DNA of 64,000 nt from a virus (Duplodnaviria; Heunggongvirae; Uroviricota; Caudoviricetes): the IMG/VR virus record IMGVR_UViG_3300032007_000002; one strand, written 5' to 3'. Below, one piece after another: positions 14,973-55,221 of the stretch. Position 1 is the first letter of the stretch, and every line of letters starts with the position of its first letter. Both the position numbers and the translations under genes were made by a program. The notes beneath the pieces are model-generated. The model searched no databases and was not told where the DNA came from. It was given only the letters and a program-made list of their open reading frames with translations.

Positions 14973-14995
14973 AAATATAGCAAAATCGCTAAACT
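14973..14995. promoter_or_regulatory. Back-to-back class 1 promoter (minus, for gp44) and TAAACT promoter (plus)
   Basis: AAATATAGCAAAA at 14973-14985; GCTAAACT at 14988-14995. Confidence 0.7.
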
Positions 14996-18260: not shown

Positions 18261-18273
18261 AAATATAGCAAAA
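18261..18273 (-). promoter_or_regulatory. Class 1 promoter TTTTGCTATATTT, probably giving a leaderless polymerase mRNA
   Basis: Exact motif; TATATT hexamer 7 nt from the ATG with no SD sequence. Confidence 0.75.
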
Positions 18274-22704: not shown

Positions 22705-22768
22705 GGTAAATATCCAGTGCGGTTTCCCCATAGTTTATAAAAATGCCCCGGCTCCGCGCCGGGGTTCT

Positions 22769-24155: not shown

Positions 24156-25106
24156 CTAGGTTTTCTCGTGGAGCTGGCGAAGGTAGTCGTATGCCGCCCG
24201 CTCGGCATCCGACTTGCACGGGGCGAGCCGGAACTTGACGCGTATCTTCAACCCGTCGGCAGTCACCGTCTCGACGACCGTGTCCTGGCTGTTCGCCGGG
24301 ATGCAAATTCTGACCGTCTCGTCGCCGCACTGGACAGCCACCCACTTGCCGAGAACGAGATCCTCGGGGAAGATTTCCGGCCCATCCACGACAAGCACGC
24401 CATCCGCGATGGAACAGTTCTCGGGAAGCTCCGGGTTGAAGGTCACGATGAGATTGCCGTTACATCCACCAAAGTGGCCGGCGTTGCCCTTCCCGGTCAT
24501 GCGGGTCTCCATCATGCCCGGCCTGTAAATCAGGTTCTGGGTAATCTGGCGACGGTTCTCGCCGTTATTGCAATACGGGCACTTCTCGATGATGTTGATG
24601 CCGGTCCCGTTGCACTTGTTGCACTTCCTGAACCGGTGGGTAGTCGGGTCGCGATACCTGCCGTTACCGCCGCACTGGCTGCACTTTGCCGCCTTGGCAG
24701 CTCCGGTACCGTCACATTCGAGGCATGTGGAACGGCGCTCGAACTGCACGGGCATCATGGGGCACCCGTGCATGAACACGGAAAACGGGATATTCACTGT
24801 GAGATGGATGTCGGAACCGTTGACCGCGGTCCTGGATTCGGGCTTCTTGCCGAAATTCCTCGCAACGGTCGGCGTGCCGAGAACGGATGCGTAGAGTTCG
24901 AATTCCGCCAGGTAGGAGTGCTTCTTGTCATACTCCTTACGCTTCTCGGGAGTCCCAATCTGCGCATAGGCCTCGTTGAGTTCAGCCATGCGCTGCTCGG
25001 ACCCACCCTTGTCCGGGTGGGCTTCCTTGCATAGGCGCCGGTAGGCCTTCTTGATGTCTTCGTCGGAGTCGGAGAGCTTTACGCCGAGAATGGTATATGG
25101 ATTCAT
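24156..25106 (-). CDS. dnaJ: DnaJ-like co-chaperone
   Basis: J-domain NPYTILGV...HPDKGG; CxxCxGxG zinc-finger repeats; GNLIV C-terminal domain. Confidence 0.93.
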   Translation of the reverse strand: MNPYTILGVKLSDSDEDIKKAYRRLCKEAHPDKGGSEQRMAELNEAYAQIGTPEKRKEYDKKHSYLAEFELYASVLGTPTVARNFGKKPESRTAVNGSDIHLTVNIPFSVFMHGCPMMPVQFERRSTCLECDGTGAAKAAKCSQCGGNGRYRDPTTHRFRKCNKCNGTGINIIEKCPYCNNGENRRQITQNLIYRPGMMETRMTGKGNAGHFGGCNGNLIVTFNPELPENCSIADGVLVVDGPEIFPEDLVLGKWVAVQCGDETVRICIPANSQDTVVETVTADGLKIRVKFRLAPCKSDAERAAYDYLRQLHEKT

Positions 25107-25659: not shown

Positions 25660-28600
25660 TTACTTTGCCTCCTTGCCGCCCTGGGTCTGGACAAACTTAC
25701 GGGCTTCGTTATACAACTGGGTTGACTTGCGTTCCGGATTCTCAGCTTCCGCGTTCGGGTCGTTGGCAGCCAGGAGTTCCTTGTACTTGGCAGCCTGCTT
25801 GTCCATCAGCTCGCGGTGCTTCGCGGCGACCTTCTTGTTGAAGTCAGCCTGACCGGATGCAGCAGTTTTTGCCTTGCTGACATCAGCTTTAGACTGAGCT
25901 TCCGCCTGACGTTCGGCCTCCGCCATCAACTGTTCGTCAAGCGCCGGGTCAATCGGACGATGATCCTTGAACTTTGACGGGTCAGCCTTTTCGGCATTGG
26001 CGAGCAGACGCTGATACACCATGTTTTCGTAGCGGTTCTTTGCCTGGGTTACCGGGGAAACCGGTTTGCCGGGTGCTTTCGGCTTAGCCGGGGCAGGTTC
26101 TTCTGCGGCCGGCGTCCACTTTGCCCCACACGAAGTGAGTGCAGACACGGTTGCCGTCTTGGCATCCTTGCCGGCTTCCACTGCCTGTGCAGTCTTGCGC
26201 ATGGCCTTGTCGAACACAGTCGAGCCGATTGATGTTTTGAACCCATCCACAGTAACTACGTAGCCATCGCCGCGCTTGTCGCTAGTGTCGTTTTTAATAT
26301 CGACACCCTGCTTAAACAGATACGCAATTACTTCCTGCGTAGCCTCGTCTTCGCGAACTTCATTCATGCTAAGGAAGTCACGAACGTTGGTATTCGGGGT
26401 AAACCCGCCACTCGTATCCTTGTCCGACAGGTCAGGCTTAATGTCAGACGGCTTCACGCCAGCATATTCGCTGCACAGATTACGCAGACGCTCGATAAAC
26501 TCCTGGCGAGTCTTCGGCTTGCCGAGAGACAATGCCTTGCTACGAACTTCCATAATCGGCGGGAAGAGCTTCACGGCTTCAGCAATCTGCTTCTTACGGA
26601 ATTCGGCAAGGTCATCCTGGCTCATTCCCTTCGGCGGCAATTTGCAGAGAAGATCGATGGCCTTATCAACGTCAGTAATGTCAAACTCCTTGCCCGGGCG
26701 GTCAATCAGCTTGACACATTCGTCAGCAACCTGATCCTTCTGCCGTTCTACGTCAGCAGCATCGGCACTGTCCTTCATACGCAAGAAATCAGGAATCGCA
26801 TTCGAAGAAATCATGCGCTGAATGACCATCGAAACAGCCGGGAACTGTGACTTCATTTGGTGACGGGACTTGTCAGAATAGAAATATTCGTCGAACACTT
26901 CCCGGAAGTCGTCTCCCGTGACAGTACCGGGCAGCTCTTTCAGCAATTTGCCGATAGTGCCGTCGGTCCCTTCTGCCCGGTGAACCTTTTCTGCGAGTTT
27001 ATTCTCCTCTGCCCTACCGCGAGCGGCATAGAATTGTTCAAGAATCTTATCAATATCGGACGCAGCATCGTTACGGTCGATAAGGTCAAACGACTCCAAC
27101 TCCTTGAATACATCCGCAATGTCTTTGCGGGTATGCGAAATCTCGTCTCGTTCGCCGACTTCGGTAAAATACCTGTGGGCCAGATGACGCACTTCATCCT
27201 CACCGAGTTCCGGCGGGAGCTTACTGAGGACCTCGAAAATCTTTTGTGCACGGCTGGCGGTGAACAGATTGTTCGGGTCGTTTTCGTTACGATACTTGCC
27301 ATCGGACTTAATTTTGGAATTCGCATACATACGAGACGGCGAAGTAGCCATTTCATACGACAGAGCATAACGTTCAACGTCGCCATTCAACGCAAAGACA
27401 AAGTCCGCCAGCGGCATAGACCCATCCGCAATCTTGGGCAACAGTTCAGAACTCAGTTCATTCTTGATATCGTCATCGGATTTGGTGCGGCGAGCACGAA
27501 CGGTGGTATCGAACTTGTTCTTTGCATCAGGCGTATAGCCAGTGTCCACGGACAGCTTAATCAGTTTTTGTGCAATGGAGACGCGAACGTCCTCAATGAA
27601 CTTGTTAAGCTCCGCATCAGACGGCGACGTCACAGAAGAGAAGTCACCCTCAATCCCGCATGCCTTGGCAATGTCATCAAACGTCATGCCACCAGGCACG
27701 TCAGTTGCCTTGCCATCCGGCCCATAATGGACCTGCACCTTTCGGGTCTTTGTGTTATAGTCACCGCGGGTACGGAAATCGGAATCCGGGTCGGGGGACG
27801 AGACCGACAAATTTTTCGAATACACACCGACCGGGACACCCTTCATAAGTGCAGCAATGTCCGCCTTTGTGGAATGATACTGTTTGTCGTTCTTCCGTTC
27901 ATCGTCGAAAATGTCGTTCACGATTAAGTTCATGATGCCATTTCCGGCAAGACCGGTAAACGCCTTGACCGGGTTCTGGTTCAATGCAGGACGCAGCATC
28001 TTACCAATGGTATTCTTCATGTTGACGGCATCATCTTCGGCAGCGTTCTCGTCGCCGTTGACATACCCAAGTATCTGTGCAAGGTGGGCAGCCAGCTTAC
28101 GCATCTTCGTGTCCGAATTGATGCGGCGCATCATTGCCACGTTGTACAGACGCATGCTGTCATGCGTTCCCGCCGATGTCGGATAAGCCTTCCTTGATGA
28201 GTCATCGACACGCTTGTAAGGGTTATTTTCCTTCGGGGAGACAACCAAACGAGCGAATGAATCAACAATATCATCCGTATCACCCATCGGTTCGGCTGCA
28301 ACAATTTCTGACGGCTTGAACCCATCCGGTGCGGCAACCATGTGCTTGTACTTGCGGCCATCAAATCCGGTAGCCTTTTCTTGAAGGAGACCCTCATCCG
28401 GTGCCGCAACTTTCTTATACATCGCATCAAGACCCGCAATAACCTTACTGGCAACGACAAGAACATCTTCCTTCTGGACAGACCCGCGTTCTTTGATGAC
28501 CTTAGTCAGCAACGCGTCACCTTCCAAAAGAACCTCGTTCAACTTCGCCGCGGCACCAAACTTGAGCGAACGGCTGATGTCGTCGATTTCGGCAGATGCG

Positions 28601-31600
28601 GCATCCAGCGCGGAACGAAGCACACGGTCAGGGGTCTGACTATTGCTTGCTTTAATCATGCCATCGCCCACAATCGTAATGAGCTTGTCAACCACATTGG
28701 AAAGACGAGTTCTGACAAGGGTTTCCGGTGTAACCGGGGCATTGGTATTGTCGGCAATGTCAGTCAACTTGGAAAGCTGTGCACGGGAACCATCATACAA
28801 TTCAAGTGCAAAGCGCATGCCATCGGCGAGCTTGTCTCCACGATCGGTAATCTGCTTAATCGCGCCGATACCATACGCATCGGCATCACTCGGGTTCGTC
28901 GAACCAATGATGTCGCTGTATTCGGCCTGCCCACGCGGCGGAGCAGCCGGTTCGGACGGCAGATCGTCATAAGAAGTCCCATCGGCGTATGAGCCCGGCG
29001 TCAATCCGGCGCCCGATGCGACTGCCTTTACGCCAACATCCTTGGAAACCGGTTCAGAACCAGTCGCCACGGCAGCAAGTTCAATGACCTTTTCAAACGC
29101 ATAGAAATCATTCAAGCGATCAATGGCGGTCAATGCACCTTTGGCGTCTCCCCCCGCGGAAAGCGATCCGCGAACTGCACCAACAACCTTCTTTACGGCA
29201 TCACGGCCTTCAATGCCATCATACTTACTGAACATTGCGTTGGCAACGTCATCATAGAAACTATTGACGGCTTCGATAACCTTGCGGTATGGCGTGTTGT
29301 CATTATTGAGGTTATCATACGAGAACCCGAGGCACCACTCGTCAAACTGAGTTCTGGCAGCAGAATACATGGTGTCGGTAAGTTTTTCGTCGAACCAACC
29401 AGTAGAGCCCTTGACCAACTTGGCACATGCCGGAAGATCTCCCTGTTCCACCTGTTCGAGCAAGTCAAGAATTTCATCCGGCGTATCTTCCACACCGATG
29501 ATGCTTGCTGCCTTGAGGTAGCGGCGAACCAAGCTCTTCAACTCGGTAGCATGGCCATTAAGACCAGCTCCGCTTTCAAACTGTTCAATCGCCGCGGCAG
29601 GGTCATTCCCGGCGGAACGCATGTAATTGACGAAAATGCCACGAGAAATGCCCAATGCGCCATTCTTGTCATACATCAACGCGGCCACAGCAGAGACCTT
29701 ATCGTCTTCGGCTTCATAACCCATGCGACGAACATCGTAATTAGCACCGCCAGCCCACTTGGAAATGAGCGCTGCCTTAACATCCTGCATGGTCTTTTCA
29801 CGGATAAGTCGCTCGTCATTGTCACCGCCACGCCCCATCAGCATGTCAATGATGATAGACTTGGACACCTTGTTGACCACATCGGTCATTTGGCCGGTGG
29901 TAATCATTTTTGTTCCGTTTCGTGAACCCGGGACAAACGCTTCGGCAACATCATGACGGAAACGACCGTATGAACCCTTGATTGTATTCAATACGCCAAG
30001 GGCAACCCCAGCATCCGCGGCCAGCTTCGGATCAGCCGTAGTCTGCTTACGAAGGGTGGAAACAACGGACCGCTTGGCCTCTTCGGACAAGTTGAACTCA
30101 TCGTCGACAGCGGAAATCTGGTCAGTAACCTTCCCAAACTGCTTGTTCCGAAGGTTCTCCGCCGATTGCTGCATGACATCGGAAACGGCTGCAGCATCTT
30201 CGGCCGGAGCATTAGGATCCATCAGCGCAGCATCCTGTTGCAATCCGCCATCGACCATGTATGAGAACGGCGCAAGACCCTTGCACACGACCCAGCCACG
30301 CTGGTTGTTGTGGAAAGGCACGTAAAGCACCATCGGAAGGACATAATTATCCAAATCCGTAGAATCTGCGATTGAGAGGGTGACTTCGTCGCCATACACA
30401 TTAAGGCTGACCGTAGCGCCTTTATCGGTCCGGGAAACTCCCTTATTGATAATTTTGGACGACGTGGCAATGCCCGTCGGACGCATATATCCATCCTGGT
30501 TCCCTCGGCGAAGCGAGCCTGCGCCAGTAGTTCCGCCTTCCATCTTAGCAGTTTCAATATTCAGGACACCCATATCCGTTTTGAGACGGACAGTAGTATT
30601 GCTACTGCTTTCGCGCCGGTTTACACCAACGAACTTGTCCAATATGACCGTTCTCGCGGCATCATTGTCAATGAGGCCGATGGCATCAATGAGCTCGGAC
30701 CTAGCCTCGATTGCGCGTGTCAAATCAGAACATACCTTACGAACAGCAGTATTGAAAACCCTTGCAAGCCGGGGCTTGTCAGCCGCCAACGACATTCCCT
30801 TGCAGTGACCAGTCGGCTGGCCGTCTTCATTGACTTCCTGCGTGAAGAAATCGGGTTCAATGGAGGTAATCGCATCATTGAAAATTGCAGAGTAGCCGGT
30901 TTCGCAGGCCAGCACAAGCTCCGGCAAATAGTTAGCCTTGTCGCCATACAGCGTTTCGGCATTACCGAACAGCTGATAAAAGTGGCGAAACCCGAACTTA
31001 GTGAGACCATTGATCTTGTCCGGTGTCACTTCTACCGTATTTTCCGCGGCCACATCGCCAGGCAAGTTAAAATCAATGCCAAGGGACTGTGCGATGGTCG
31101 CTGCACCACTAGCCATACCCGCCGACGCATTTGCATACGCCTTGGCGATAAGGTCTCTACCGACAACGGCCCAGACAATCGGCTGGTACAACTTTGCACC
31201 GACTGCCCGAGTTATGCGGGCATCACGCGCCAGCGTCTGCTCTGCTGCGGCTAGTTTATCACTGTATTTTGCGGAAAGCGTATCAAGAATTTTCTGAGCC
31301 GTTCCCGGAACCGCATAGGAGTGAGATTGGGCGCTCGCAATCAACGTCTGCAATACGCTCTGGCCAACCTGGGCAAGCAAAGCGATTTTTTGCGGGTTGT
31401 AGTCAGGATCGTCAGTGGCGTTCTGGTTCGGATTTGCCTTGGTCGGGCGAGTCTTGGAACGAAGCGCCAGCATAGCTGCCTCGACGCACTCAATAAACTT
31501 GTTTCTGCCAGCCTCGGTGTCCTTAATAACTTCGTCGGGATCTTTCAGACCGCACGCCTCACCAAACTGCCTATACAATTCAGCAGTCTTCTTGAACAGT

Positions 31601-31647
31601 TCGTTCGCGCTAATCGGTGCCTTACCGGCAGTCGCGTTCGGGTTCAT
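25660..31647 (-). CDS. Giant hypothetical late protein, 1995 aa; probable virion/internal protein
   Basis: Uninterrupted ORF, GAGG RBS, TATAAACT at 31680-31687; no catalytic motif recognised. Confidence 0.85.
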   Translation of the reverse strand: MNPNATAGKAPISANELFKKTAELYRQFGEACGLKDPDEVIKDTEAGRNKFIECVEAAMLALRSKTRPTKANPNQNATDDPDYNPQKIALLAQVGQSVLQTLIASAQSHSYAVPGTAQKILDTLSAKYSDKLAAAEQTLARDARITRAVGAKLYQPIVWAVVGRDLIAKAYANASAGMASGAATIAQSLGIDFNLPGDVAAENTVEVTPDKINGLTKFGFRHFYQLFGNAETLYGDKANYLPELVLACETGYSAIFNDAITSIEPDFFTQEVNEDGQPTGHCKGMSLAADKPRLARVFNTAVRKVCSDLTRAIEARSELIDAIGLIDNDAARTVILDKFVGVNRRESSSNTTVRLKTDMGVLNIETAKMEGGTTGAGSLRRGNQDGYMRPTGIATSSKIINKGVSRTDKGATVSLNVYGDEVTLSIADSTDLDNYVLPMVLYVPFHNNQRGWVVCKGLAPFSYMVDGGLQQDAALMDPNAPAEDAAAVSDVMQQSAENLRNKQFGKVTDQISAVDDEFNLSEEAKRSVVSTLRKQTTADPKLAADAGVALGVLNTIKGSYGRFRHDVAEAFVPGSRNGTKMITTGQMTDVVNKVSKSIIIDMLMGRGGDNDERLIREKTMQDVKAALISKWAGGANYDVRRMGYEAEDDKVSAVAALMYDKNGALGISRGIFVNYMRSAGNDPAAAIEQFESGAGLNGHATELKSLVRRYLKAASIIGVEDTPDEILDLLEQVEQGDLPACAKLVKGSTGWFDEKLTDTMYSAARTQFDEWCLGFSYDNLNNDNTPYRKVIEAVNSFYDDVANAMFSKYDGIEGRDAVKKVVGAVRGSLSAGGDAKGALTAIDRLNDFYAFEKVIELAAVATGSEPVSKDVGVKAVASGAGLTPGSYADGTSYDDLPSEPAAPPRGQAEYSDIIGSTNPSDADAYGIGAIKQITDRGDKLADGMRFALELYDGSRAQLSKLTDIADNTNAPVTPETLVRTRLSNVVDKLITIVGDGMIKASNSQTPDRVLRSALDAASAEIDDISRSLKFGAAAKLNEVLLEGDALLTKVIKERGSVQKEDVLVVASKVIAGLDAMYKKVAAPDEGLLQEKATGFDGRKYKHMVAAPDGFKPSEIVAAEPMGDTDDIVDSFARLVVSPKENNPYKRVDDSSRKAYPTSAGTHDSMRLYNVAMMRRINSDTKMRKLAAHLAQILGYVNGDENAAEDDAVNMKNTIGKMLRPALNQNPVKAFTGLAGNGIMNLIVNDIFDDERKNDKQYHSTKADIAALMKGVPVGVYSKNLSVSSPDPDSDFRTRGDYNTKTRKVQVHYGPDGKATDVPGGMTFDDIAKACGIEGDFSSVTSPSDAELNKFIEDVRVSIAQKLIKLSVDTGYTPDAKNKFDTTVRARRTKSDDDIKNELSSELLPKIADGSMPLADFVFALNGDVERYALSYEMATSPSRMYANSKIKSDGKYRNENDPNNLFTASRAQKIFEVLSKLPPELGEDEVRHLAHRYFTEVGERDEISHTRKDIADVFKELESFDLIDRNDAASDIDKILEQFYAARGRAEENKLAEKVHRAEGTDGTIGKLLKELPGTVTGDDFREVFDEYFYSDKSRHQMKSQFPAVSMVIQRMISSNAIPDFLRMKDSADAADVERQKDQVADECVKLIDRPGKEFDITDVDKAIDLLCKLPPKGMSQDDLAEFRKKQIAEAVKLFPPIMEVRSKALSLGKPKTRQEFIERLRNLCSEYAGVKPSDIKPDLSDKDTSGGFTPNTNVRDFLSMNEVREDEATQEVIAYLFKQGVDIKNDTSDKRGDGYVVTVDGFKTSIGSTVFDKAMRKTAQAVEAGKDAKTATVSALTSCGAKWTPAAEEPAPAKPKAPGKPVSPVTQAKNRYENMVYQRLLANAEKADPSKFKDHRPIDPALDEQLMAEAERQAEAQSKADVSKAKTAASGQADFNKKVAAKHRELMDKQAAKYKELLAANDPNAEAENPERKSTQLYNEARKFVQTQGGKEAK

Positions 31648-31679
31648 TCACGCCTCGCTTAGATATTCTTTGCGACCAT

Positions 31680-31747
31680 AGTTTATAGATGGGACACCGG
31701 TTTCGGCAGGCATCCACATGGACAGGAACGGGGTCAAAATATAAACT
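31680..31747. promoter_or_regulatory. Divergent TATAAACTATGG promoter pair
   Basis: CCATAGTTTATA (31677-31687 region) and TATAAACTATGG (from 31740). Confidence 0.8.
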
Positions 31748-31772
31748 ATGGGCACATGCGGCCAGGTATATT

Positions 31773-33809
31773 ATGACACCAGAACAGATAGCCCAAAAGT
31801 TTACACTCTCCAATGCGGATGTTCAGAAAGCAGTCGCCGATGCGCAGGCTGCCGCAGGGGGACCCCTTTCGCTTGAAGACGAAAAGCGTGCAATAGCCGA
31901 TGCCGCCCGGAATAAAGACCTAATGACCCCGGACGAGTGCGCCGAGTTCAAAACGGTAGAGGACTCCGACCTCAAGCCAATTCTCGATACAATAAAAAAC
32001 GCGGGCACCCTTAAAACGCCCAAAGACGCCATCCTGGATGCTGTCGTTACCGAATATATCCAGTTGGCGGTCGAGGACAGTGCCGGAAACCCGGAAGCAA
32101 GCCCATATCAGCTATTCCAAGATTATTTGAGGGACCTCGGAACCCTCGGCGAACGCAGAAAGTTAAAAGTAAAAATTTTAAAACTCGACCAAGAGATTTC
32201 GCCAAACAAGGATGACACGCCGGAGGAGCCATTAGTAAAAAATGACCCACCCCCACCCAACGAACAGGCGAACCAGCAGGAAACCGCACCCGTTGAACCC
32301 AAACCAGACGTGCAAGAACTCCCGGCTGAACCCGCTGACGGGGGAAAGGCCAAGAAACCCCGCAAATCCGCCCCAAAGAAGGCTGACCTAAAAGCAGCCC
32401 TTGACGAGCAGGCGACAAAAATGCAAGCCGCATTCCAGCAAGAACGGGCCAAAATGCAAGCCGACTTCAACCAGCAGCTGGAAGCCGCAAAAACGGGTTT
32501 TGAAGCTAAGCAAAAGGCCCTTATTGACGATTTTGATGCACAAAAGGAAAAAATCGTCGCGGACTGCGAAAACGAAATTGCAAAAATCAAGGCAGCAACC
32601 AGCAGTGCAAACCAGGCCGATGCCGATGCGGCTACCCAACAGGCTCTCGAAAACGCAAAACAAGAGATAGCCGAGCTCAAAACGTCCTATGGCCAGCAGA
32701 TCCGGGAATTGCAATCCACCCAGGAAGCCCAAAAGAAGGAATTGACGGAAGCCAACGAGGCAAAAATCCAGGAACTGCAGGCATCATTTGCTACGCAACT
32801 CCAAGAGCTGCAAGCCCAACTCGGGACAGCTGCGTCAGAAAAGCAAACACTGGAAGAACAGCTCCGTGCTGCCCAGTCGGAAAACGAGGCGCTCAAAAAC
32901 CAGGAGCACCACGAAGAAAGCGCACCAAATGGCGACGACGAGGGCGACGATGATGATATTCTGCGCCGTACAGGACATATTATCGAACCGGCCGATCCGA
33001 ACGACACGCCCCGTGAGGAAAGGGCCATTCATGAAGATGGGCCGCACGACACAGGCGATGGCGGTCCTGCACATGCAGAATACACCAAGCCGGAGCGCAT
33101 GGGCGCAGACACGACGGCAATGGACGAATGGAACCAGGCGGTAGTTACCCGTTTCGGCTTCCCGTTTATCAACTTCGCCTGCCGGGACATCACCAACCTG
33201 CTCAACGGGGACGATGTCACCAGGAAACGTGCCTACGCAAACATCAAGGACCAGCTCCGCCAGCTTGCCCACCTGCAGACCAGGGGCATCCTCGGCGGGA
33301 TGTGGGATTCCATGATGGAAAGCCCCATCATGCTGTTGAAGACGCTGAAATCCAGCTCATACAGCAAGTGCTACCTGAATACGCTCATCGCCAACGGTCG
33401 CGAAGTCCGCGATACGCCGGATGGCGCCAACCTTACCGTCAGGCCGACCATCTACGGCGACGTGAAGTTCCGTGTCCGCAAGCCGGAGGAAATCCCGATC
33501 AACTTCGTCAACAAGTTCTTTGTCGAGGTTGACCCGTATAGGCAGCTTGGCGTATATCGCAAGTGGACAGGGAACCCCAACGGGACAACGCCGGAGGCAT
33601 ACCTCGACGACAATGCAATCCCGTACACGTCAGTTCTCGCCCCGACGGCAAAGACCAGTTTCAGCCGCAGCGACCTCAGCACCGGTTCGTTCCTGTCCAG
33701 GGTGACCGGGTTCAGGAAGGCTAACTCGATGGTGACCTGTTCAATCGACGGCCACCGCGGCGGTTTCATCATCCCGGCACATATCGCGGACGTCCTGTTC
33801 GCATACTAG
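31773..33809 (+). CDS. Coiled-coil late protein
   Basis: Long central heptad region rich in Q/E/A/K with a globular C-terminus; start MTPEQ placed after the promoter. Confidence 0.8.
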   Translation: MTPEQIAQKFTLSNADVQKAVADAQAAAGGPLSLEDEKRAIADAARNKDLMTPDECAEFKTVEDSDLKPILDTIKNAGTLKTPKDAILDAVVTEYIQLAVEDSAGNPEASPYQLFQDYLRDLGTLGERRKLKVKILKLDQEISPNKDDTPEEPLVKNDPPPPNEQANQQETAPVEPKPDVQELPAEPADGGKAKKPRKSAPKKADLKAALDEQATKMQAAFQQERAKMQADFNQQLEAAKTGFEAKQKALIDDFDAQKEKIVADCENEIAKIKAATSSANQADADAATQQALENAKQEIAELKTSYGQQIRELQSTQEAQKKELTEANEAKIQELQASFATQLQELQAQLGTAASEKQTLEEQLRAAQSENEALKNQEHHEESAPNGDDEGDDDDILRRTGHIIEPADPNDTPREERAIHEDGPHDTGDGGPAHAEYTKPERMGADTTAMDEWNQAVVTRFGFPFINFACRDITNLLNGDDVTRKRAYANIKDQLRQLAHLQTRGILGGMWDSMMESPIMLLKTLKSSSYSKCYLNTLIANGREVRDTPDGANLTVRPTIYGDVKFRVRKPEEIPINFVNKFFVEVDPYRQLGVYRKWTGNPNGTTPEAYLDDNAIPYTSVLAPTAKTSFSRSDLSTGSFLSRVTGFRKANSMVTCSIDGHRGGFIIPAHIADVLFAY

Positions 33810-33818
33810 GAGACTGCA

Positions 33819-34835
33819 ATGCTAACTAATGTCCTCAAAACCAACCTGATAGCATTTCTCGAAGCGAACATGGCCGACATTTCCAAGGGCACCGACGCAG
33901 GACGCGCCCAGCGTTCCAAGTCGCTGCTCCACTACTACCGCGGTCTAGGAAAGGACCGCGAGGGTAATGCCGTAATCCGGTGGAAAATCCCGTCCCAGAC
34001 CAAGGAAAACGTCATGTACGACTGCTACATCGCCGTGATACCGGCGGGCAAGCAGTCCCTGTTCGCGCTCGCGAAGTCCAGGAGGGACATCCGTTCCCGC
34101 ATGGAGGCGATCAAGAACGCCGATGTCAAGTGCTTCTGCACCTGTCCCGACTTCAACTGGTCGGGCGCCAGATACAACATGAAGCACAAGATGGGCAGCC
34201 TCGAAGAAGGCTTCGAGTCCGTTCCTGGGGTGCCGGACGGCTCCGACATCAAGCCGGTCGTCAGAGATCCGCAGGGAAAGATACTCGTCTGCAAGCACCT
34301 GCTCGCCGCCTTCAAGGGCATGAAAACCAACGCAACCAGCATCATGAAGGATGCCGCAAACTCGCGCTTCACACCAAACGACGGACAGGAAAAACGGGCC
34401 GAGTCCGCCACCGGGGAATTTTTCAAGACCGAAAAGACTGTCCGCAACAAGCCCGAGAAGGAACCGGTCGAGGTGGACAAGGAACTGCTCGAAGAGGCAC
34501 CGGCAAAGGTCGATGCCGCCGAAGAAGCGCTCAACAGCCTTGCCTTCGCGACCGAAAAACTGGACGAAACTACCCCGAAGGCCCCGGAAGAAAACGTCAA
34601 GGCGGCAGTCGAGGAAGTCGAACAGCCGACGGCCGAACCTACGGAAGAAAACACGAAGGAAAGCCTTAGCGAAGTCGGCCTGGGTGAAACCGAAACACAA
34701 CAGGCCCCAGAGCCGGAACCTGCACAGGAACAGAAACCGAAACCGCCCGCTGAAACGCCAGAAGAATACGCACGGCGAAATACCGGGGATCTTAGCGATG
34801 ACGATGCCGAATACCTAATGTCGTTATTCAGCTAA
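33819..34835 (+). CDS. SWIM zinc-finger protein with an acidic tail
   Basis: CFCTCPDF...VCKHLLAA (CxC-xn-CxH); AGGAG RBS. Confidence 0.8.
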   Translation: MLTNVLKTNLIAFLEANMADISKGTDAGRAQRSKSLLHYYRGLGKDREGNAVIRWKIPSQTKENVMYDCYIAVIPAGKQSLFALAKSRRDIRSRMEAIKNADVKCFCTCPDFNWSGARYNMKHKMGSLEEGFESVPGVPDGSDIKPVVRDPQGKILVCKHLLAAFKGMKTNATSIMKDAANSRFTPNDGQEKRAESATGEFFKTEKTVRNKPEKEPVEVDKELLEEAPAKVDAAEEALNSLAFATEKLDETTPKAPEENVKAAVEEVEQPTAEPTEENTKESLSEVGLGETETQQAPEPEPAQEQKPKPPAETPEEYARRNTGDLSDDDAEYLMSLFS

Positions 34836-35349: not shown

Positions 35350-35390
35350 AAAAAGAGAACCCCGCGCCGGCGCGGGGTTTTCTGGTTTCT
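35350..35390. terminator. Bidirectional terminator
   Basis: Perfect palindrome AACCCCGCGCCGGCGCGGGGTT flanked by A and T tracts between convergent genes. Confidence 0.85.
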
Positions 35391-35964
35391 ACGGCCAGGT
35401 TTTCCGCCCGGCGAAGCACCACTCGTGGGCCTCCTTCGGAGTATAGCCCCACTTGACCATCTCGTCTTCCAGTTCCTTCCGGTAGAAGTCCCTGCGGGTA
35501 AGTCGGTATTCGGACGGGATCATCGGGACGGAGACCTTCCGGCCCATTTCCAGCTTGCGCTTTGCGAGCACCGGAACAGGGTCGTCCCCGTCCTTAGTCA
35601 GGTAGTCAAAGGCGTTCCCGACCAGTTCGACGATCTGTTCGACCGTCTTCGGGAGCTTCTTGCGGACCATCTTCCGGTAGGCACGGTTCACATCGCACAG
35701 GACCTTGGACAGGATGTCGAAGTCCTCCCAGTCCACATGGGACATCGGGCCGAACTGGAACGTAGCTCCGTCGCGCCCCGCGCCGAAGCTGCCGACAAAC
35801 GGGTAATACGGGACAAGGTCCTTGTCGCTTTCGTTGCGGACCATGTCCTTCCCGACGAATATCCGTATGTTCCTGCGGTATTCCTCCGATGAAGTCCTGC
35901 CTTCCGCGTCGGCGTGCATGTAGAGAAAATCGTATAAGTCGCTCTTTCCAGAAAACCTTGACAT
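35389..35964 (-). CDS. Hypothetical phage protein (MSRFSGKSDLYD...)
   Basis: GGGAG RBS; operonic position. Confidence 0.75.
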   Translation of the reverse strand: MSRFSGKSDLYDFLYMHADAEGRTSSEEYRRNIRIFVGKDMVRNESDKDLVPYYPFVGSFGAGRDGATFQFGPMSHVDWEDFDILSKVLCDVNRAYRKMVRKKLPKTVEQIVELVGNAFDYLTKDGDDPVPVLAKRKLEMGRKVSVPMIPSEYRLTRRDFYRKELEDEMVKWGYTPKEAHEWCFAGRKTWP

Positions 35965-35965
35965 G

Positions 35966-36433
35966 TCAAATCTCCCTTGCGTTGTCAACGCCGTGTTTCA
36001 TGATGCACTTCCGGCAGAACGGAAGGATGTAGCCCTGCGTAACATACTTGGCCGGGCGGCCGCACTCGCAGCAGGTATGCCCGGTATCGCTTTCCATGTC
36101 CCATATCAGGTCGTCCAGCTGTCTCACGCACTCATCGGACAACACGCCGGACCAGTATAGCCTGGCCTCCCCGTATTTTTCCTTCGCGTCGATGATGTGG
36201 AAACTGCAGAGCTCCCCGTAACGTTTCAGCAAGGACTTGATGCGGCGGAGATGACGAACAATGACGCGGCGCCACCCGTCAGGATAGCTGTCGAGCAGGG
36301 TATACGAGAAGTCGTAGTCCTCGATGCGACCACCGTCCACCGCCCTCGGTTCGAGGAACGGGAACCGCCAGACGAGCCAGCGGTTACGGAGACTGGTGAG
36401 CGCAGTCAGAAAATGTCGTTTTGGTTTGGGCAT
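35966..36433 (-). CDS. Phage hypothetical protein with KEKYG.R.Y motif and zinc ribbon
   Basis: AKEKYGEARLY, TCCECGRP, PFCRKC. Confidence 0.8.
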   Translation of the reverse strand: MPKPKRHFLTALTSLRNRWLVWRFPFLEPRAVDGGRIEDYDFSYTLLDSYPDGWRRVIVRHLRRIKSLLKRYGELCSFHIIDAKEKYGEARLYWSGVLSDECVRQLDDLIWDMESDTGHTCCECGRPAKYVTQGYILPFCRKCIMKHGVDNAREI

Positions 36434-38106
36434 CAGGAAACCTTAGCCAAGCACGGCTGCATTACCGACTGAAAACTATGTTCTCGCGGGTCTGCGGTTT
36501 CCACGGTTCCATGCCCACGCATGGCAAGCGCGTGATAATGACGCTCGATTGCGGAGCGGATCTTCTCCGCGTCACGCTGCGCCGTAGTGGACGGGCGGAG
36601 GATTTCCATTTCCGCCACAGTCATTGTCGGGATGCCTGTCCTGATGAGCTCGGCGTCCATGATTTCCTTCACCGCGTTGACATACTCTGCCGGGACAATG
36701 AGGGAGTCATGGACGGTGCACACGGGGCACCCGATGAACAGGCGCACCAGCGGGATGACGCCCTTGAACACGAAGTCACTTTCGGTGGACTGCATCTCGT
36801 GGGAGAGCGCGGCATAGTTGTCACGCTTCATCGAGTCGATGCAGCGGAGAAGCGTCGGGAAGTCGCGCTTCCAGACCTGGCGCAGCTTCGACCTGACATA
36901 GTGCTTCGCGCGGTCGAAGATAATCGGCGCATACAGGAAAGCGAGCCATTCCTTCTTCACCGTCTTTCTGTCGTTCATGCCGATTTGCTCGGCAAAATAC
37001 TCGTAAATACGGCCTTCGCGGAGCAGTGAACTGAACCGGTCGAGCTCGTCGGAAATCAGCTTCCCGGTAGCCGCGGATTCTTCCGGTCGCCAGAACGGTG
37101 TCAGCTTTACGAACCTCGGTTCCGGGACCATCAGCGGATCGGTGGCAAGGCGCTTCCACATGCCGAACACGCTGCAGAGGAAGGCCGCCTGGGAACTCCT
37201 GATGTCAACGCTGCCGACCGGCGCACCGTCGCAGGACATGCACTGCTCGCGGATTTCCTTCTTCAAGGAGGTAACGTTCGTGTGGACACGGCCATAACGG
37301 TCCTTGACGACATAGGCCGCAATAGGGTCCTCGCCCATGCGGCCAAAGCGCTCGACCTTGTCCATTTCGCCATCCACGCGTTCCTGCGGCACGGTTCCGC
37401 TGTCGGCAAGCCCCTGCATGGTGGCCCTTGCCTTTTCCGCGTCAATCTTGAAGTGAGCCAGGTCGTCATACATGTTGGCGACGTCGTCCTGCTCAAGAAG
37501 GTATTCCTTCCTGCGGACCGCGTCGAGATACAGGCGGCGCTTGGTGAAGATGCTCTCGAACTTGTAGGATCGGAGGGAACCGACCGGGTGGTGCTCGCCG
37601 TTGCCGCACTTGGACTTCCAGCGCGTCCAGAGGTAGCGGAGGTAGTAGGTGGCATAGGCCTCGCCGAGCCAGTAGGCCTTCGAGACGCCCTTGCACTTGG
37701 TAGTGGACTTGCGGTAAGAAGCCGTGTGGCAGATGAACCCGTGGTCGGTCAGCCACTTTACGCAGGCCGGATAGCCGGTCCCTGCGCGATAGCGGAACAG
37801 CGTGCTGTAAAGGTTGCAGTACCAGGAGCTCTCGTGGGTGCGGACGCCGGCGATGTTGTCGTCCTTGAACTTCTCGGACAGGCCCTTGCAGACGTCAAAA
37901 AGGATGACGAGCATGGACTCGTAGAGGCAAAGACGCTGTCTCTTGCCTAAAGCCGAGAAGGAAAGGTCTGCATTGAAGGCAATCTCGAAGGAACGGAAGA
38001 GGAGGGAAGGAAGAAGACAGGTTGGAGAGAAGTCGGACCACGACCGATGGTCGTAGTTGATGTAGGTGTAGTCCAGGGACCCCCGCTTCATGCCACATGT
38101 GTCCAA
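36433..38106 (-). CDS. Small PolA/T7-RNAP-superfamily polymerase-like protein (TV-Pol-like), candidate primase/initiator
   Basis: DRYGRVHTN, motif A VDIRSSQ, motif B-like RKTVKKEWLAFLY, MQSTES, motif C TVHDS; GGAGG RBS with TTG start. Confidence 0.7.
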   Translation of the reverse strand: MDTCGMKRGSLDYTYINYDHRSWSDFSPTCLLPSLLFRSFEIAFNADLSFSALGKRQRLCLYESMLVILFDVCKGLSEKFKDDNIAGVRTHESSWYCNLYSTLFRYRAGTGYPACVKWLTDHGFICHTASYRKSTTKCKGVSKAYWLGEAYATYYLRYLWTRWKSKCGNGEHHPVGSLRSYKFESIFTKRRLYLDAVRRKEYLLEQDDVANMYDDLAHFKIDAEKARATMQGLADSGTVPQERVDGEMDKVERFGRMGEDPIAAYVVKDRYGRVHTNVTSLKKEIREQCMSCDGAPVGSVDIRSSQAAFLCSVFGMWKRLATDPLMVPEPRFVKLTPFWRPEESAATGKLISDELDRFSSLLREGRIYEYFAEQIGMNDRKTVKKEWLAFLYAPIIFDRAKHYVRSKLRQVWKRDFPTLLRCIDSMKRDNYAALSHEMQSTESDFVFKGVIPLVRLFIGCPVCTVHDSLIVPAEYVNAVKEIMDAELIRTGIPTMTVAEMEILRPSTTAQRDAEKIRSAIERHYHALAMRGHGTVETADPREHSFQSVMQPCLAKVS

Positions 38107-38279
38107 AGTTACCCTCCGGTATGCGCCCCATTGGTCTATTCGGGAACGACGGTTAAGAATCTATAAAAAACTTTCCGTCTTCGGAAGAGGTTTATATCAA
38201 AAAACTCCAGAATTCTGCCCCCTGCGGGCTTGAAAATATAAACTAGGGGCGTATTTAACATATATATGGAAGGTGGACC
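38107..38279. other. AT-rich divergence point, candidate replication origin
   Basis: Global gene-orientation switch; A-tracts; TTCCG-TCTT-CGGAA hairpin; divergent promoter motifs at 38188-38204 and 38237-38244. Confidence 0.45.
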
Positions 38280-41200
38280 ATGGCAGTCATACCCGAAGCG
38301 CTGGTCAAGAAGGAAGCCGGCATCGAAATTCTCAACGACAGGAGCCGCCCGGGGACGGAAACCCTCTGGATGCTGATTGCAGTCCTGTCCAAGTCGGCTG
38401 TGTTTACCGGGACAAAGGGTACGCTTATGGACAAGTACCTTGCATATATCGGGGACCCGGAGACGGTAAATGCGACTTGCGTCGCCCAGTATAGGGTGAC
38501 ATCGACCCAGGTTGCCCAGGCATGTGAACATAAATTTACATTCAACCCAGCAAAGTTCTCGCTTGACCTCGGGGACAACTCATACGACTTGTTTGGTGTC
38601 CCGATGGATCCGCTTTTCTATGGCGCGGTTTTTGCCAACCGAAAGATGGTTGGCGTCATCGACGATACTGACCGCCGTCGCATCAAGCAGGCGTTTGTTG
38701 AAGCGTTGCCCATTGTTGGAAAACTTGCCAAGGTCAACCCGGCAGTGCTGCAACAGATTGGCCCGGCGGGTACGGTCAAGAAGTTTGGACCGATTACACG
38801 GGCGCTCTTCGCCGAAGACGGGACGGTTGACGCCGACATGATTGGTGAACTGTTCGAACTTTGCAATACGGGCGCAAGAACTCTTACCGGAAAGGATGAG
38901 GACGTCCCGGAGTTGGATGGTGCCCATCCCGAAGTGTTGGCAATCGCCAATAAGACGAGTGCGCTCAGTAAGTTCACGGATGACGAGTTCGAGTCATCGG
39001 TGTATGCTCGTTTGGGGGATGTTGCGGCAAGGAATGCCCGCCAGAAGATGCGGTCCGAATTGCAGACGGACAACAAGAAGCCGCAGTTCTTCGTGTTCAA
39101 GCAGGACATTGCGACGGCAAAGGAATATCTGGCCGAACAGGGGAAGCCCCATACCGAATTTGATGCAATCGGCATGCTTGCCGATACCAAGCGAACCGGT
39201 GACCGCAGGTTCCCGCGTTGGGGTGTGATATACCCGGCAAAGTGCATGATTTGCGGTTCGCGAAACCTAATCCTTGGTGACGCCGCGTCGAAGGTGGGCG
39301 GAAAGTGGGAAAACCTTTATTCTGACATTGCCAATTTGAACGATACTTCGGTTTTTGCGGAAGACCCGAAGAAGGGCGATAAAATACGCGCCGAAGTTTT
39401 GCGCGAACTGGTCCATAATGGACAGAAAGGCGAATCACTGGATTTAAGCACGGGGACGGAAACCATTACCGTGCGCCCGCCGTATGCGGTAACCTTTACC
39501 GGTCCTGATGCTGAAGCCAAGATAAATGGCGTCATGAAACTTTTGTATAACGTCGCTACAGGTATCAGGACCCCGCAGAAGACGGTTGCGACTGAGGAGA
39601 TGGCTGCAACCGGCAAGGAAGGCGACAGCATGACTGACTCCGTCGAATACCAGATGTCGAAGGCCATGGAACAAGGCGCGATCGAGAAGGGTAGTGACGA
39701 ACTGCGTGAAATCATCAATGTCCCGAACGAAAATAAGGTGTTTGATGCCGCGGTTCGTATCTTCAAGGAGTTCCCGGAGCTCCAGAAGACCGACGTGTTC
39801 CAGAAAAACAAGGACCTGTTCGCCAAGTATCGTGCCGGACAGCATGAACTTCATTCTACGGGCGCGAACAAGGACCTTCCGCTTGATGAAGATGAGATTG
39901 CTACGCTTGCGGCGGAAACTATTCATGCGATGATAGATAGCCGCGGTGCGGTAGTGACACGTTTCTTCGATCCGTCCAGGTTCCGCATTGTCGAACGTCT
40001 TGGCATTCCGTATATTGCGAACTGGGGGCTTACTGACCAGGGCGAGTATTTGATGCAGCAGTATACGGAAAAAATGAATGAACGTGAGGGGCAGTATGCC
40101 GGCAGCAAGTTTGACGGCGCCACTGTCAGGAACATGTTCCCGTACATGCTGTTGAGACGTCAGTTTGACGCGATGGGCAACAAATGGGCCAGCGGCGCAA
40201 TCAGGGACCTGGTTGCGTTTGAGAGCGACTTGAAGGATTTTCTCGTAAGCCGCCCGGAGCCGGTAGCTGATGCTAATTCGAAGACACTTGGCGAGTTCAA
40301 GGCATCGGTCATGAATGGCATCCAGGGAACGCCCAATGACGCGGCGAAGGCCTTGTCTGGCGAAATTCAGAAATTGAAGGCCCAGATTAACCTGGGTAAC
40401 CTTGGTGTGACCCTTGGTGATGCGTCGGAAGAAGTTATTTCGACCGAAGGTTATGACGAGCTCATGTGCACGCTGTTTGCGCACCAGTATCAGGACCAGG
40501 AGGCCCGCATAAAGTATTACCGCGGCCATTTGAGCGGCACCGGTGAGAAGAGCGGTATTTTGGACATGATGCAATGTTCTCATCTTAGCGAATTGGGTGA
40601 GAAGCTGATGCAGCGGAACCATGACTTGTTTGATGACATTGCGGTTGTCGCGCATGACAAGTATGAGGCAATGCTTGACGACAAGGTGGATGCCGCAAAA
40701 CGTAAGCAGCTCCGCATCGAAGCCGACAATGTCATCTTTGAAATGTTTGACATGGCGGTCGTGAATGCTGCCGTGAAGGGCATTGGTGCAATCATTGCCG
40801 CAATTTCCCCGGTCTTGCTGAACGGCGGGTCTATTCCGCTGGTCGGCATTGTGTCGTCGGCGGAATTTGGCCATACTTTTGACATTGCCGTCAAGTATGT
40901 TACCAGCCCTGAGCCGGAAACATTGACGATGGGTCCGATTGGGTTACTGCTTGACAGTTTCCTCGGCAAGTATTATGATTTCGGTGACAGTGTTGTTGCC
41001 GCGATTGGTAACCCGTTGAAGGAAGGCGATTACGAAGGGCTTGGCGAAGTCCTGCGGCATATCTATTTGACTGACCGAGACGTGGGAGAAATGTCCATTA
41101 TCACTATCCCTGGCCTGCGTCCTACTCCGAAACCGATACCGACTGGTAAACTCAATACCGAGGTGCGCAACATTGACCGCGCTGGGGATCGTGCTGGCAG

Positions 41201-46111: not shown

Positions 46112-46124
46112 TTTTGCTATATTT
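46112..46124 (+). promoter_or_regulatory. Class 1 promoter TTTTGCTATATTT
   Basis: Exact recurring motif upstream of the helicase gene. Confidence 0.75.
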
Positions 46125-50069: not shown

Positions 50070-50113
50070 TTTTGCTATATTTCACGGGAACAGGGACTTT
50101 TATATTATAAACT
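50070..50113 (+). promoter_or_regulatory. Tandem class 1 and class 3 promoters for the SSB gene
   Basis: TTTTGCTATATTT at 50070-50082 and TATAAACT at 50106-50113. Confidence 0.7.
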
Positions 50114-51763: not shown

Positions 51764-51818
51764 GAGCCGCCCCTGTGCCATACACGGGGGCGGTTCTTGT
51801 ATTGTTTTTGCTATATTT
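51764..51818 (+). terminator. Terminator after SSB, followed by the class 1 promoter for primase (51806-51818)
   Basis: GAGCCGCCCCTGTG-CCATA-CACGGGGGCGGTTC stem plus T-rich tract. Confidence 0.8.
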
Positions 51819-51826
51819 CATGCAAC

Positions 51827-53008
51827 ATGGGTTTACGTTTTGATAACATACCGCTATCCGCCTATGACGGGATCATTCGCAAGTTGTTCGGGCACCTGAA
51901 TTTGCAGGACAAGATGAACCACTACGAATGCGTATGTCCATTCTGTGGGGACATGAAGCAGGCGCACAAGCGAAAGTTATGGATTTACAAGGACACCTGG
52001 AAGACAACGTGCTTCAAGGGGTGTTTCGACGGGTCCCTGCTGAAGTTCTTGCAGGAAAATTACCCGGATGAATACCATGAACTTATCACCTATGCCATAA
52101 CCGATGACGACAACCGGGCAGGCGACAAGAAGCCTGCCGAAAAGCCGCTGGTTCAGCGTGTCGTCCCGACCCTTCCGTTTATGCCCGGAGAGCTCGTGTC
52201 TCTTTCAGACCCGACCGACCCGCTGGCGAAGAAGGCCAGGGACATCTGCGCCGGCCGAAGGATCCGCAAGGACGTGTATGAGACATGGTTTGCCTGCCGG
52301 ACTGGCGAGCAGTTTTATCACCGCAACCCGGACGGCTCCATCCAGTATTATCCGGGCACGACACGGCCGATAGGCAACGAATATCGTCACCGCATCATCA
52401 TGCCATACTACAAGTTCGGCGGGTTGTGGGGACAGTTCGATGCCCGAGACATGGATCCGAAAAGCGAACAGCGGTACCTGAACTTCAAGGGAGTTCGGCG
52501 CGAGGCATACAACATCGACTTTGTCGATTTTACCAAGCGTTTCTACATCCTCGAAGGATTGCTGGACTCGACGTTTATCCGCAATTCAATCGCCATTGGC
52601 GGCATTTCCCATCTTGCCGAGACGATGGCCGATAACCCGAAAATCAGGAAGTATATCAATAACGCGGTAGTTATATGGGATAACCCGTATAACGATGTCG
52701 CCGGTCGCCAGGCTTCCGTTTCCGCGATTTCCAAGCAGTTCAGGTGGTTCGACTGGGAAGGAATAGCATCGAAGGATATCAACGCCGCTGTCCTTGCCGG
52801 GGAGATGCCTTTGGACAGTTCCGGCTACGTGGACCCGGCGTTCCTCGAAAGGCGCATCCGCGAAAAGGATATGGCAGACATCGTCATGACGATGCGCTTT
52901 GGCAATATTCAGAAGGATATGTTCAAGGCGAAGATGGAAGCGCGGCGGAACGCCATGAAGAACAACACGCATATCCAGAACAACAAACATTCAATTTCCT
53001 TTATCTAG
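51827..53008 (+). CDS. DNA primase (gp61-like)
   Basis: Zinc domain CPFCGD...CFKGC; RIIMP; TOPRIM motifs EGLLDS, WDN, KDIN. Confidence 0.92.
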   Translation: MGLRFDNIPLSAYDGIIRKLFGHLNLQDKMNHYECVCPFCGDMKQAHKRKLWIYKDTWKTTCFKGCFDGSLLKFLQENYPDEYHELITYAITDDDNRAGDKKPAEKPLVQRVVPTLPFMPGELVSLSDPTDPLAKKARDICAGRRIRKDVYETWFACRTGEQFYHRNPDGSIQYYPGTTRPIGNEYRHRIIMPYYKFGGLWGQFDARDMDPKSEQRYLNFKGVRREAYNIDFVDFTKRFYILEGLLDSTFIRNSIAIGGISHLAETMADNPKIRKYINNAVVIWDNPYNDVAGRQASVSAISKQFRWFDWEGIASKDINAAVLAGEMPLDSSGYVDPAFLERRIREKDMADIVMTMRFGNIQKDMFKAKMEARRNAMKNNTHIQNNKHSISFI

Positions 53009-55208: not shown

Positions 55209-55221
55209 TTTTGCTATATTT
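55209..55221 (+). promoter_or_regulatory. Class 1 promoter TTTTGCTATATTT
   Basis: Exact motif upstream of the clamp gene. Confidence 0.75.

Follow-up and report, generated by a model that had tools for sequence, protein, structure and literature searches.

The 64,000-nt stretch of IMG/VR virus record IMGVR_UViG_3300032007_000002 (Caudoviricetes) that we analysed, hereafter the window, encodes a 552-amino-acid (aa) protein whose predicted structure places it securely in the PolA/T7-RNA polymerase superfamily, as a minimal polymerase of thumb, palm and fingers without an exonuclease. Its gene is conserved and syntenic in a clade of huge, T4-like phages of the rumen and gut, and heads a small operon at their main divergent gene switch. 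Two relatives show, on or close to the orthologous gene, the strand-skew pattern expected of a bidirectional replication origin. We tentatively favour the reading that the protein is an origin-proximal primase-polymerase.

A minimal polymerase core with an intact active site

The fold was predicted with an AlphaFold (AF2) model of the full-length protein, built from 13 relatives, which is confident (predicted local distance difference test, pLDDT, 85; predicted template modelling score, pTM, 0.83). In VIA-align comparisons, residues ~200–487 match Pol theta (4x0p) over 240 aa at a root mean square deviation (r.m.s.d.) of 3.6 Å (Z 11.6), Klenow at Z 11.3 and T7 DNA polymerase at Z 11.0; matches to these three enzymes span Z 11.0–11.8 across 236–243 aa at 3.6–4.3 Å. 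The top 50 Foldseek matches of the model are all of Pol I type.

Residues R268, R281, D296, Q301, Y363, K379, P412, K422, E437, H461 and D462 are invariant across 60 diverse relatives. They include the arginine of the T/DxxGR hairpin (D264xxG267R268-H270), the aspartate and glutamine of motif A (D296-I-K/R-S-S-Q301) and the histidine and aspartate of motif C (T-V-H461-D462-S). Motif B of the fingers reads R375xxxK379xxx[F/L]xxx[F/Y]387 and is set by hhalign on R518/K522/Y526/Y530 of T7 DNA polymerase (E=0.027), and a Q..E element is present as Q434..E437-S. The protein therefore carries the features that define the superfamily: a palm that superposes on those of family A polymerases and bears both catalytic aspartates, of motifs A and C, and the T/DxxGR hairpin together with fingers motif B. 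From R268 to D296 there are 28 residues, which hold a six-residue helix. The enzyme should be active because its catalytic residues are invariant in the 60 relatives.

Searches of Pfam, PHROG and NCBIfam yielded no model that matches the protein. DNA_pol_A (PF00476) matches neither it nor any of the 60 relatives at E≤0.01; RNA_pol (PF00940) does not match it either, and among the relatives only one touches it (E=0.0055, below the cut-off). An exonuclease domain is absent, as the polymerase match begins at about residue 200 and residues 1–200 are winged-helix-like, and the same Pfam, PHROG and NCBIfam scans found no nuclease domain in the protein and no nuclease in adjoining genes. The protein thus has neither the PF00476 match nor the 3'–5' exonuclease, or vestige of one, of Pol I-type family A polymerases. 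A first-pass annotation of the window had proposed the palm motifs, a PolA-superfamily fold, with structure prediction as its check, and the lack of an exonuclease. All three are borne out, by the conservation in the 60 relatives, by the Pol theta and Klenow superpositions with the Foldseek matches to Pol I, and by fold comparison of the N-terminal and core parts, respectively.

A winged-helix-like N-terminal domain

Residues 1–200, modelled alone, give a pLDDT of 91. The best structural matches of this domain are nearly all winged-helix DNA binders (Fur, the ORC/Cdc6 winged helix, TFE, MarR and plasmid Rep), with modest scores (best Z 6.8, for Fur; all Z <8; Foldseek E ≥0.12). We therefore describe it with moderate confidence as winged-helix-like, and presume from the model that it is a DNA-binding module.

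The gene lies at or near a skew reversal in two related phages

The phage subclade comprises proteins of 500–585 aa that are 34–99% identical to the 552-aa protein; their contigs, which reach 431 kb, derive from rumen and gut metagenomes. In all subclade relatives examined, transcription away from a long replication/recombination or baseplate-replication block on the opposite strand begins with the polymerase gene, which is followed by three conserved opposite-strand genes and then by a giant gene of ~2,000 aa.

In the 317-kb contig G002C26, the raw cumulative GC skew has its minimum at 208,107 and the orientation-corrected third-codon-position skew (GC3) at 207,360. The best two-arm split falls at 208 kb (support 206–209 kb), and the ortholog occupies 209,900–211,330. 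The shift is seen in plus-strand genes (+0.13, p=3e-7) and minus-strand genes (+0.19, p=8e-7; Mann–Whitney), and intergenic DNA shifts in the same direction (+0.13). The 148-kb contig G003C66 behaves alike, with a raw minimum at 78,251, a best split at 78 kb (support 73–87 kb), an ortholog at 76,600–78,066 and shifts in both plus-strand (p=0.002) and minus-strand (p=0.003) genes. In both contigs genes diverge from the reversal on both arms. Hence an orientation-independent skew reversal lies on, or at most ~2–4 kb from, the ortholog at the main divergent gene switch, which is the signature expected of a bidirectional replication origin. A control for codon-position effects had been named beforehand in the first-pass annotation as decisive for its claim of an inflection here, and in these two contigs the reversal is independent of both codon position and gene orientation. 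The resolution of the skew, a few kb, cannot separate the gap upstream of the polymerase gene from the region downstream of its operon. None of the three long related contigs has a terminal overlap, and none is shown to be a complete genome.

Raw cumulative GC skew in the window dips to a local minimum at ~36.0–37.5 kb, inside or just 3' of the polymerase gene. The first-pass annotation had predicted a minimum near 38.2 kb; the upturn is real, but it lies at this other position and is mostly a product of gene orientation and two large genes. Per-gene analysis shows that the bulk of the window's skew follows gene orientation, codon position 1 being G-rich and positions 2 and 3 C-rich on the coding strand, and that the local V-shaped dip owes much to the genes for the 1995-aa and 1093-aa proteins.

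A separate feature was seen in G001, a 172-kb virus contig 98% identical across the polymerase. From ~30 to 65 kb it shows a steep, sustained slope in skew (about −2,100 cumulative over 65 kb), with an abrupt flattening near 63–64 kb that is the strongest inflection on the contig at the 20–40 kb scale and is unrelated to the polymerase locus.

A family at home in mobile elements

An exhaustive search returned 1,792 cluster representatives of the wider family at E≤1e-3. Its distant members are 370–560 aa long and adjoin genes for phage-type integrases, resolvases, IS630-type DDE transposase, IS110 transposase, ParB-like and helix-turn-helix (HTH) proteins. Their host contigs belong to Planctomycetota, Verrucomicrobiota and Bacteroidota metagenome-assembled genomes (MAGs; contexts of P0041, P0036 and P0064), and 5 of the 81 genomes of one planctomycete family contain members. 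Most of the ~1,800 family clusters lie in mobile-element contexts, with a patchy distribution. A tblastn search of plasmids returned no match to the 552-aa protein; with a distant member as query it returned one hypothetical protein, from Hymenobacter.

TV-Pol polymerases have been described in integrase, resolvase and transposase contexts in the same phyla, and TV-Pol elements integrate in phage genomes, for example that of Ma-LMM01 (PMC2579912). Like the minimal TV-Pol module, our protein consists, by its model and invariant residues, of thumb, hairpin arginine, palm and HTH fingers with no nuclease, and members of its family are carried on elements resembling transposons or viruses, together with genes for a resolvase, integrase or transposase. 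The D5-like helicase that is fused or linked to a subset of TV-Pol is present neither in the protein nor in its operon, the nearest helicases being gp41-like and UvsW-like ones 8–18 kb off. Membership of TV-Pol is likely, not proven, because no direct sequence link to a named TV-Pol was obtained.

An origin-proximal primase-polymerase as the favoured reading

In the reading that we tentatively favour, the N-terminal domain would bring the enzyme to DNA at or near the origin, the minimal polymerase would lay the first primer de novo, and a T4-type replisome (PolB, clamp loader, gp41-like helicase, DnaG-type primase and gp32) would then take over. We favour it because the family has its home in self-replicating mobile elements, because CcPol-MP of SCCmec, the only characterised relative of the TV-Pol group, provides a precedent, because a fused domain of DNA-binding type would replace a separate SSB (a protein that binds single-stranded DNA), and because the position at a skew reversal is conserved. 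We infer DNA binding by the N-terminal domain, de novo priming, the type of nucleotide used, the role in initiation and the site of priming. A broader claim, that this clade of huge T4-like phages has replaced or supplemented R-loop and recombination initiation with a dedicated single-polypeptide initiator, whose winged helix would recognise the origin and whose minimal PolA-type core would make the first primer de novo, is one that we regard as doubtful.

Several observations weigh against the favoured reading. Across the locus in the window, with orientations separated, the plus-strand GC3 shift is just +0.02 to +0.07, and in contig G001 support for the best two-arm split extends over a 39-kb interval with its edge at the gene. 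In G002C26 the best split misses the upstream gap and falls 1–4 kb past the gene on its downstream side, and the homologues of ~430 aa in two ~635-kb phages (LR756504 and LR745206) are not at major inflections. The three syntenic phages are not independent observations, and a near-origin position is expected for any gene beside a replication module. A search of positions 37900–38400 found no iterons and no significant inverted repeats, in a gap with ordinary promoter boxes. Across the subclade the polymerase has no conserved SSB-like or helicase neighbour; the phage already encodes a DnaG-type primase; and the family profile finds no candidate in Ma-LMM01, weak as this is as a negative. The initiator role put forward in the first-pass annotation is thus supported in part, by the fold, the active site, the missing exonuclease, the redundancy with PolB and primase and the skew of relatives, but is weakened by the window's own corrected skew, by a gap that holds only promoters and by the ~635-kb phages. 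Likewise, its expectation that homologues sit at skew inflections holds for G002C26 and G003C66 but not for those two phages.

If that broader claim is true, the protein would be the first self-targeting family A primase-polymerase to act as the replication initiator of a large virus genome. Family A polymerases are primer-dependent in textbooks, and the one relative shown to prime, CcPol-MP, does so with a separate SSB. A compact, well-folded protein that has a putative DNA-binding domain of its own, and sits where phages of more than 300 kb appear to have their origin, would be a purifiable test case for chain starting by PolA, and the same protein bears on how huge T4-like phages pick where replication starts.

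Other possible functions

The protein could be a minimal single-subunit DNA-dependent RNA polymerase, akin to N4 RNAPII or the T7 enzyme, that transcribes a subset of phage genes and is linked to replication indirectly or through R-loop primer transcripts, which we judge unlikely. Yeast mitochondrial RNA polymerase is the top row of the VIA-align comparison (Z 11.8), and T7 RNA polymerase (Z 9.5) and N4 RNAPII (Z 8.6) also match, but DNA polymerases score equally at a far lower r.m.s.d. (3.6–4.3 Å as against 11–12 Å, the yeast and T7 enzymes both exceeding 11 Å). At the sequence level, phmmer found nothing relevant to the protein among PDB sequences, and the sole match of the family profile there is N4 RNAPII, over motifs B and C (E=0.3); this and the one relative that touches RNA_pol are weak matches. 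Motif C reads HDS, the form in T7-type RNA polymerases, whereas Pol I has HDE. However, residue 387, at the position of the tyrosine Y639 of T7-like RNA polymerases, is Phe in 37 of the 60 members. Moreover, the invariant Gln301 stands five residues past the motif A aspartate, by ungapped count only, at what would be the place of the steric-gate Glu of Pol I and the Gly of T7 RNA polymerase; an hhalign comparison with T7 RNA polymerase was spurious, laying motif C on the GR hairpin, and gave no residue-by-residue alignment of motif A. Promoter-dependent single-subunit RNA polymerases do need an added DNA-binding domain (PMC7581432), and the analogous phage protein divPolA2 is likewise suspected to be an RNA polymerase (PMC11348598). 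Most members of the family nevertheless lie in integrase- or transposase-bearing elements, with no obvious use for a transcriptase, and both classes of promoter-like box in the window (see below) look sigma-dependent.

Nor do we think it probable that the protein serves as an accessory DNA polymerase that extends existing primers in repair, translesion synthesis, gap filling or recombination-dependent replication, with no part in initiation and a position that simply follows from its replication and recombination neighbours. The best low-r.m.s.d. matches are to repair-type family A enzymes, Pol nu (Z 9.8) joining Pol theta and Klenow; the missing proofreading domain fits a low-fidelity accessory enzyme; UvsX-, UvsW-, FEN- and Rad50-like genes are neighbours; and repair is one option proposed for divPolA2 by Yutin et al. 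(PMC11348598). Yet both the fused winged-helix-like domain and the short thumb-to-palm segment are unusual for repair polymerases, the wider family belongs to self-replicating mobile elements and the one characterised relative is a primase (PMC7581432).

A captured remnant of a TV-Pol-type element, kept for a reason other than replication such as selfish maintenance or anti-defence, would suit the patchy, mobile-element distribution of the family and the known TV-Pol elements of phage genomes such as Ma-LMM01 (PMC2579912), but is very improbable given that no integrase, resolvase or transposase adjoins the polymerase in any phage relative, that position and neighbours are kept across relatives at 34% to 99% identity and that the catalytic residues are all retained.

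Gene, start codon and operon

The minus-strand open reading frame (ORF) of the first-pass annotation (36433–38106) exists, in a longer form that uses an alternative TTG start at 38106. The likelier start is the ATG at 38091, giving 552 rather than 557 aa, because the corresponding ATG, preceded by an AGGAGG box, is where the polymerase of the closest relative begins, and because a strain 95–99% identical has a 1-nt deletion at 38105, between TTG and ATG.

The polymerase is the first of three co-oriented minus-strand genes, followed by genes for 155 and 199 aa (Table 1). The 155-aa gene is kept only in close relatives (56% identity in L005), and the 199-aa gene, 69% identical in L005, is not present in more distant ones; Pfam, PHROG and NCBIfam hold no match for either product. 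Indeed, the genes directly downstream of the polymerase differ across the subclade, one pair of relatives sharing another gene of 166–183 aa.

Among bovine rumen metagenomes, 14 DNA runs contain the phage. The three-gene operon is covered in four RNA libraries of two sheep-gut studies by contigs of strains 90–99% identical; being assembled contigs, they mark presence in RNA libraries, not level, strand or ends. One of 2.6 kb spans 35374–38007 and so carries the polymerase with the 155-aa gene, and another terminates at 38140, a weak hint only of a promoter for the operon. No contig in the four libraries covers 38.4–41.5 kb, which is not evidence of differential expression.

The divergent gap and two classes of promoter-like box

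The first-pass annotation had singled out an AT-rich gap at which gene orientation flips. The gap is divergent, spans 188 bp and is 56% AT as against 44% for the window, but it is merely the fifth most AT-rich 120-nt stretch there, at one of at least five strand switches.

Two promoter-like boxes face in opposite directions within it. The plus-strand box, TATAAACTAGGG, is of late type, lies 31 nt upstream of the 1093-aa gene and is kept in each of the four relatives aligned. The window has TATAAACTAKGG in six exact copies, where 0.05 are expected, each just upstream of a gene start; the genes that they precede include the giant 1995-aa gene and the baseplate block, and the copy at 22728–22739 contains the ATG that is annotated as the start codon. 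This class is probably a T4-like late promoter, with the copy in the gap serving the baseplate block. The possibility that TATAAACTAKGG is a T7-style promoter read by the 552-aa enzyme was set aside, as it precedes structural genes and resembles T4-type late promoters.

The minus-strand box, TTTTTTATAGATTCT, would serve the polymerase operon. It is conserved in relatives whose polymerases are 46–76% identical and resembles TTTGCTATATTT, a box found ahead of replication genes in eight copies (seven exact and one near; 0.11 expected). TTTGCTATATTT precedes clamp-loader, PolB, helicase, gp32, primase and Rad50-like genes, and appears to be a second promoter-like class, for replication genes; it is similar to TAnnTTTG, the −7 element of Bacteroidota. 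Several annotated ORF starts overlap TTTGCTATATTT, and these starts have probably been called too far upstream.

Between the minus-strand box and the polymerase start, the ~50–60-nt leader (38100–38150, minus strand) is conserved at the nucleotide level in the same relatives. It shows no convincing conserved RNA structure and could be a protein-binding or regulatory site. Overall, the gap looks like a divergent promoter region, and nothing in it specifically marks an origin.

Other genes of the window

The window contains a PolB and a DnaG-type primase, confirming that the phage already has a replicative polymerase and a primase (called gp61 primase in the first-pass annotation). The clamp-loader ATPase and PolB genes lie upstream, and the plus-strand block across the gap runs from the 1093-aa gene and a gp25-like baseplate gene to UvsX-like, gp41-like, gp32-like, primase, UvsW-like, FEN and Rad50-like genes. 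The 1093-aa gene, the giant 1995-aa gene and the three conserved genes on the opposite strand have no match in Pfam, PHROG or NCBIfam.

The 1995-aa ORF (25660–31647, minus strand) has a counterpart of ~2,000–2,160 aa at the same distance and orientation from the polymerase in L001, L004, L005, L007 and G003C66. Three genes, within 31689–34835 (plus strand) and 10910–11974 (plus strand), have a third-position AT skew of +0.24 to +0.39, almost all others ranging from −0.1 to −0.5; this could reflect distinct codon usage or be a sign of different origin or expression, and two of the three lie in the block whose synteny with the polymerase is kept in all relatives. At 24156–25106 (minus strand) the phage encodes a complete DnaJ-type co-chaperone, comprising a J domain, a CXXCXGXG zinc centre and a C-terminal domain. 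Finally, huge-phage contigs that carry the polymerase and T4-like replication genes have been binned with bacteria, L011 (148 kb) and L013 (317 kb) as Prevotella sp. and Bacteroidaceae MAGs and L012 in a Fibrobacter sp. MAG; these are likely binning artefacts, or else host hints for Prevotella/Bacteroidaceae.

Table 1. Positions of the polymerase gene, its predicted domains and associated features in the window
Feature	Position	Strand	Description and basis
Polymerase gene	36433..38091	−	552 aa, winged-helix-like plus minimal PolA-type; ORF, AF2 model, relatives at 26–99% identity
N-terminal domain	37492..38091	−	aa 1–200 (winged-helix-like ~25–180); stand-alone AF2 model
Polymerase core	36631..37491	−	aa ~201–487; thumb helices, R268 beta-hairpin, D296/D462 palm, R375/K379/Y387 fingers
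155-aa gene	35966..36433	−	Start overlaps polymerase stop; C-terminal CxxC...CxxC pattern; ORF
199-aa gene	35389..35988	−	Third gene of the operon; ORF
Divergent intergenic region	38092..38279		Polymerase gene versus 1093-aa/baseplate block; sequence, four-relative footprint alignment
TTTTTTATAGATTCT promoter-like box	38156..38170	−	Candidate box for the polymerase operon; conservation in relatives
TATAAACTAGGG promoter-like box	38237..38248	+	Late type; conservation in aligned relatives
TATAAACTAKGG copies	334-345(−), 10864-10875(+), 22728-22739(−), 31676-31687(−), 31740-31751(+), 38237-38248(+)		Exact matches
TTTGCTATATTT copies	14973-14984(−), 18261-18272(−), 46113-46124(+), 50071-50082(+), 51807-51818(+), 55210-55221(+), 61888-61899(+), 6184-6195(−)		Motif search
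PolB	15312-18254		Confirmed in the window
DnaG-type primase	51797-53008		Confirmed in the window

Comparison with known systems

T7 RNA polymerase makes the primer at the primary origin of T7. Priming by POLRMT has also been cited (PMC2579912). In both cases an enzyme of the PolA superfamily with a DNA-recognition module primes for a separate replicative polymerase, as is proposed here. However, these are bona fide transcriptases of ~900–1,200 aa that match Pfam RNA_pol, whereas the phage protein has 552 aa and matches no RNA-polymerase model.

The primase-polymerase CcPol-MP uses dNTPs, initiates at a site adjoining its own operon and requires a separate OB-fold protein, and the short helix before motif A of CcPol has been argued to leave room for the initiating nucleotide (PMC7581432, PMC10061031; the helix argument, PMC7581432). 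Both proteins combine a catalytic domain of family A with reduced accessory domains at the N terminus, and in both a short helix precedes motif A; each heads a small operon, and de novo priming next to its own gene is the role proposed for the phage protein too. They differ in that CcPol is accompanied by a separate OB-fold SSB (MP) and then by the helicase Cch2, whereas the phage operon has no conserved downstream partner or helicase and DNA binding would come from the fused domain. The position directly downstream, where PolA–SSB primases encode their OB-fold partner, holds the 155-aa CxxC...CxxC gene in close relatives only and unrelated genes in other subclades, with no helicase following. 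Moreover, CcPol keeps part of the exonuclease fold and the phage protein keeps none.

The resemblance to TV-Pol (Iyer, Abhiman and Aravind 2008, PMC2579912) extends to a two-helix thumb, a beta-hairpin with an invariant arginine, a palm with two aspartates and RxxxK fingers. TV-Pol is never linked to a nuclease, is 400–600 aa long and commonly has an extra N-terminal domain, and its resolvase, integrase and IS630-type transposase neighbours and phyla match those of the distant members here. In contrast to the phage protein, some TV-Pol have a D5-like helicase fused or adjoining; TV-PolN is predicted to be all-helical, whereas the N-terminal domain here is alpha/beta and winged-helix-like; and TV-Pol is mobile-element cargo, whereas the gene here is a stable syntenic gene of huge T4-like phages.

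Finally, some Caudoviricetes encode, in addition to a regular polymerase, the extra PolA-like proteins divPolA1 and divPolA2 (Yutin et al. 2024, PMC11348598). Like the protein described here, they are divergent, stand beside a regular replicative polymerase and lack an active exonuclease, and divPolA2 also has a novel N-terminal globular domain and structural matches to mitochondrial RNA polymerase (Z ~12) and N4 RNA polymerase (Z ~9). The hhalign match to a divPolA2 representative, AUR84708, is marginal (E=0.025, probability 1.9%, 52 columns covering the GR hairpin and motif A). The neighbourhood of divPolA2 varies among phages of 80–130 kb, whereas the synteny of the gene here is fixed, at the main strand switch of phages exceeding 300 kb. 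Extra PolAs in phages and PolA-type primase-polymerases are thus already known, and the lineage described here would be a variant of them with an informative genomic position: a third divergent extra-PolA lineage in phages with a replicative polymerase, with positional evidence that is absent for the other two.

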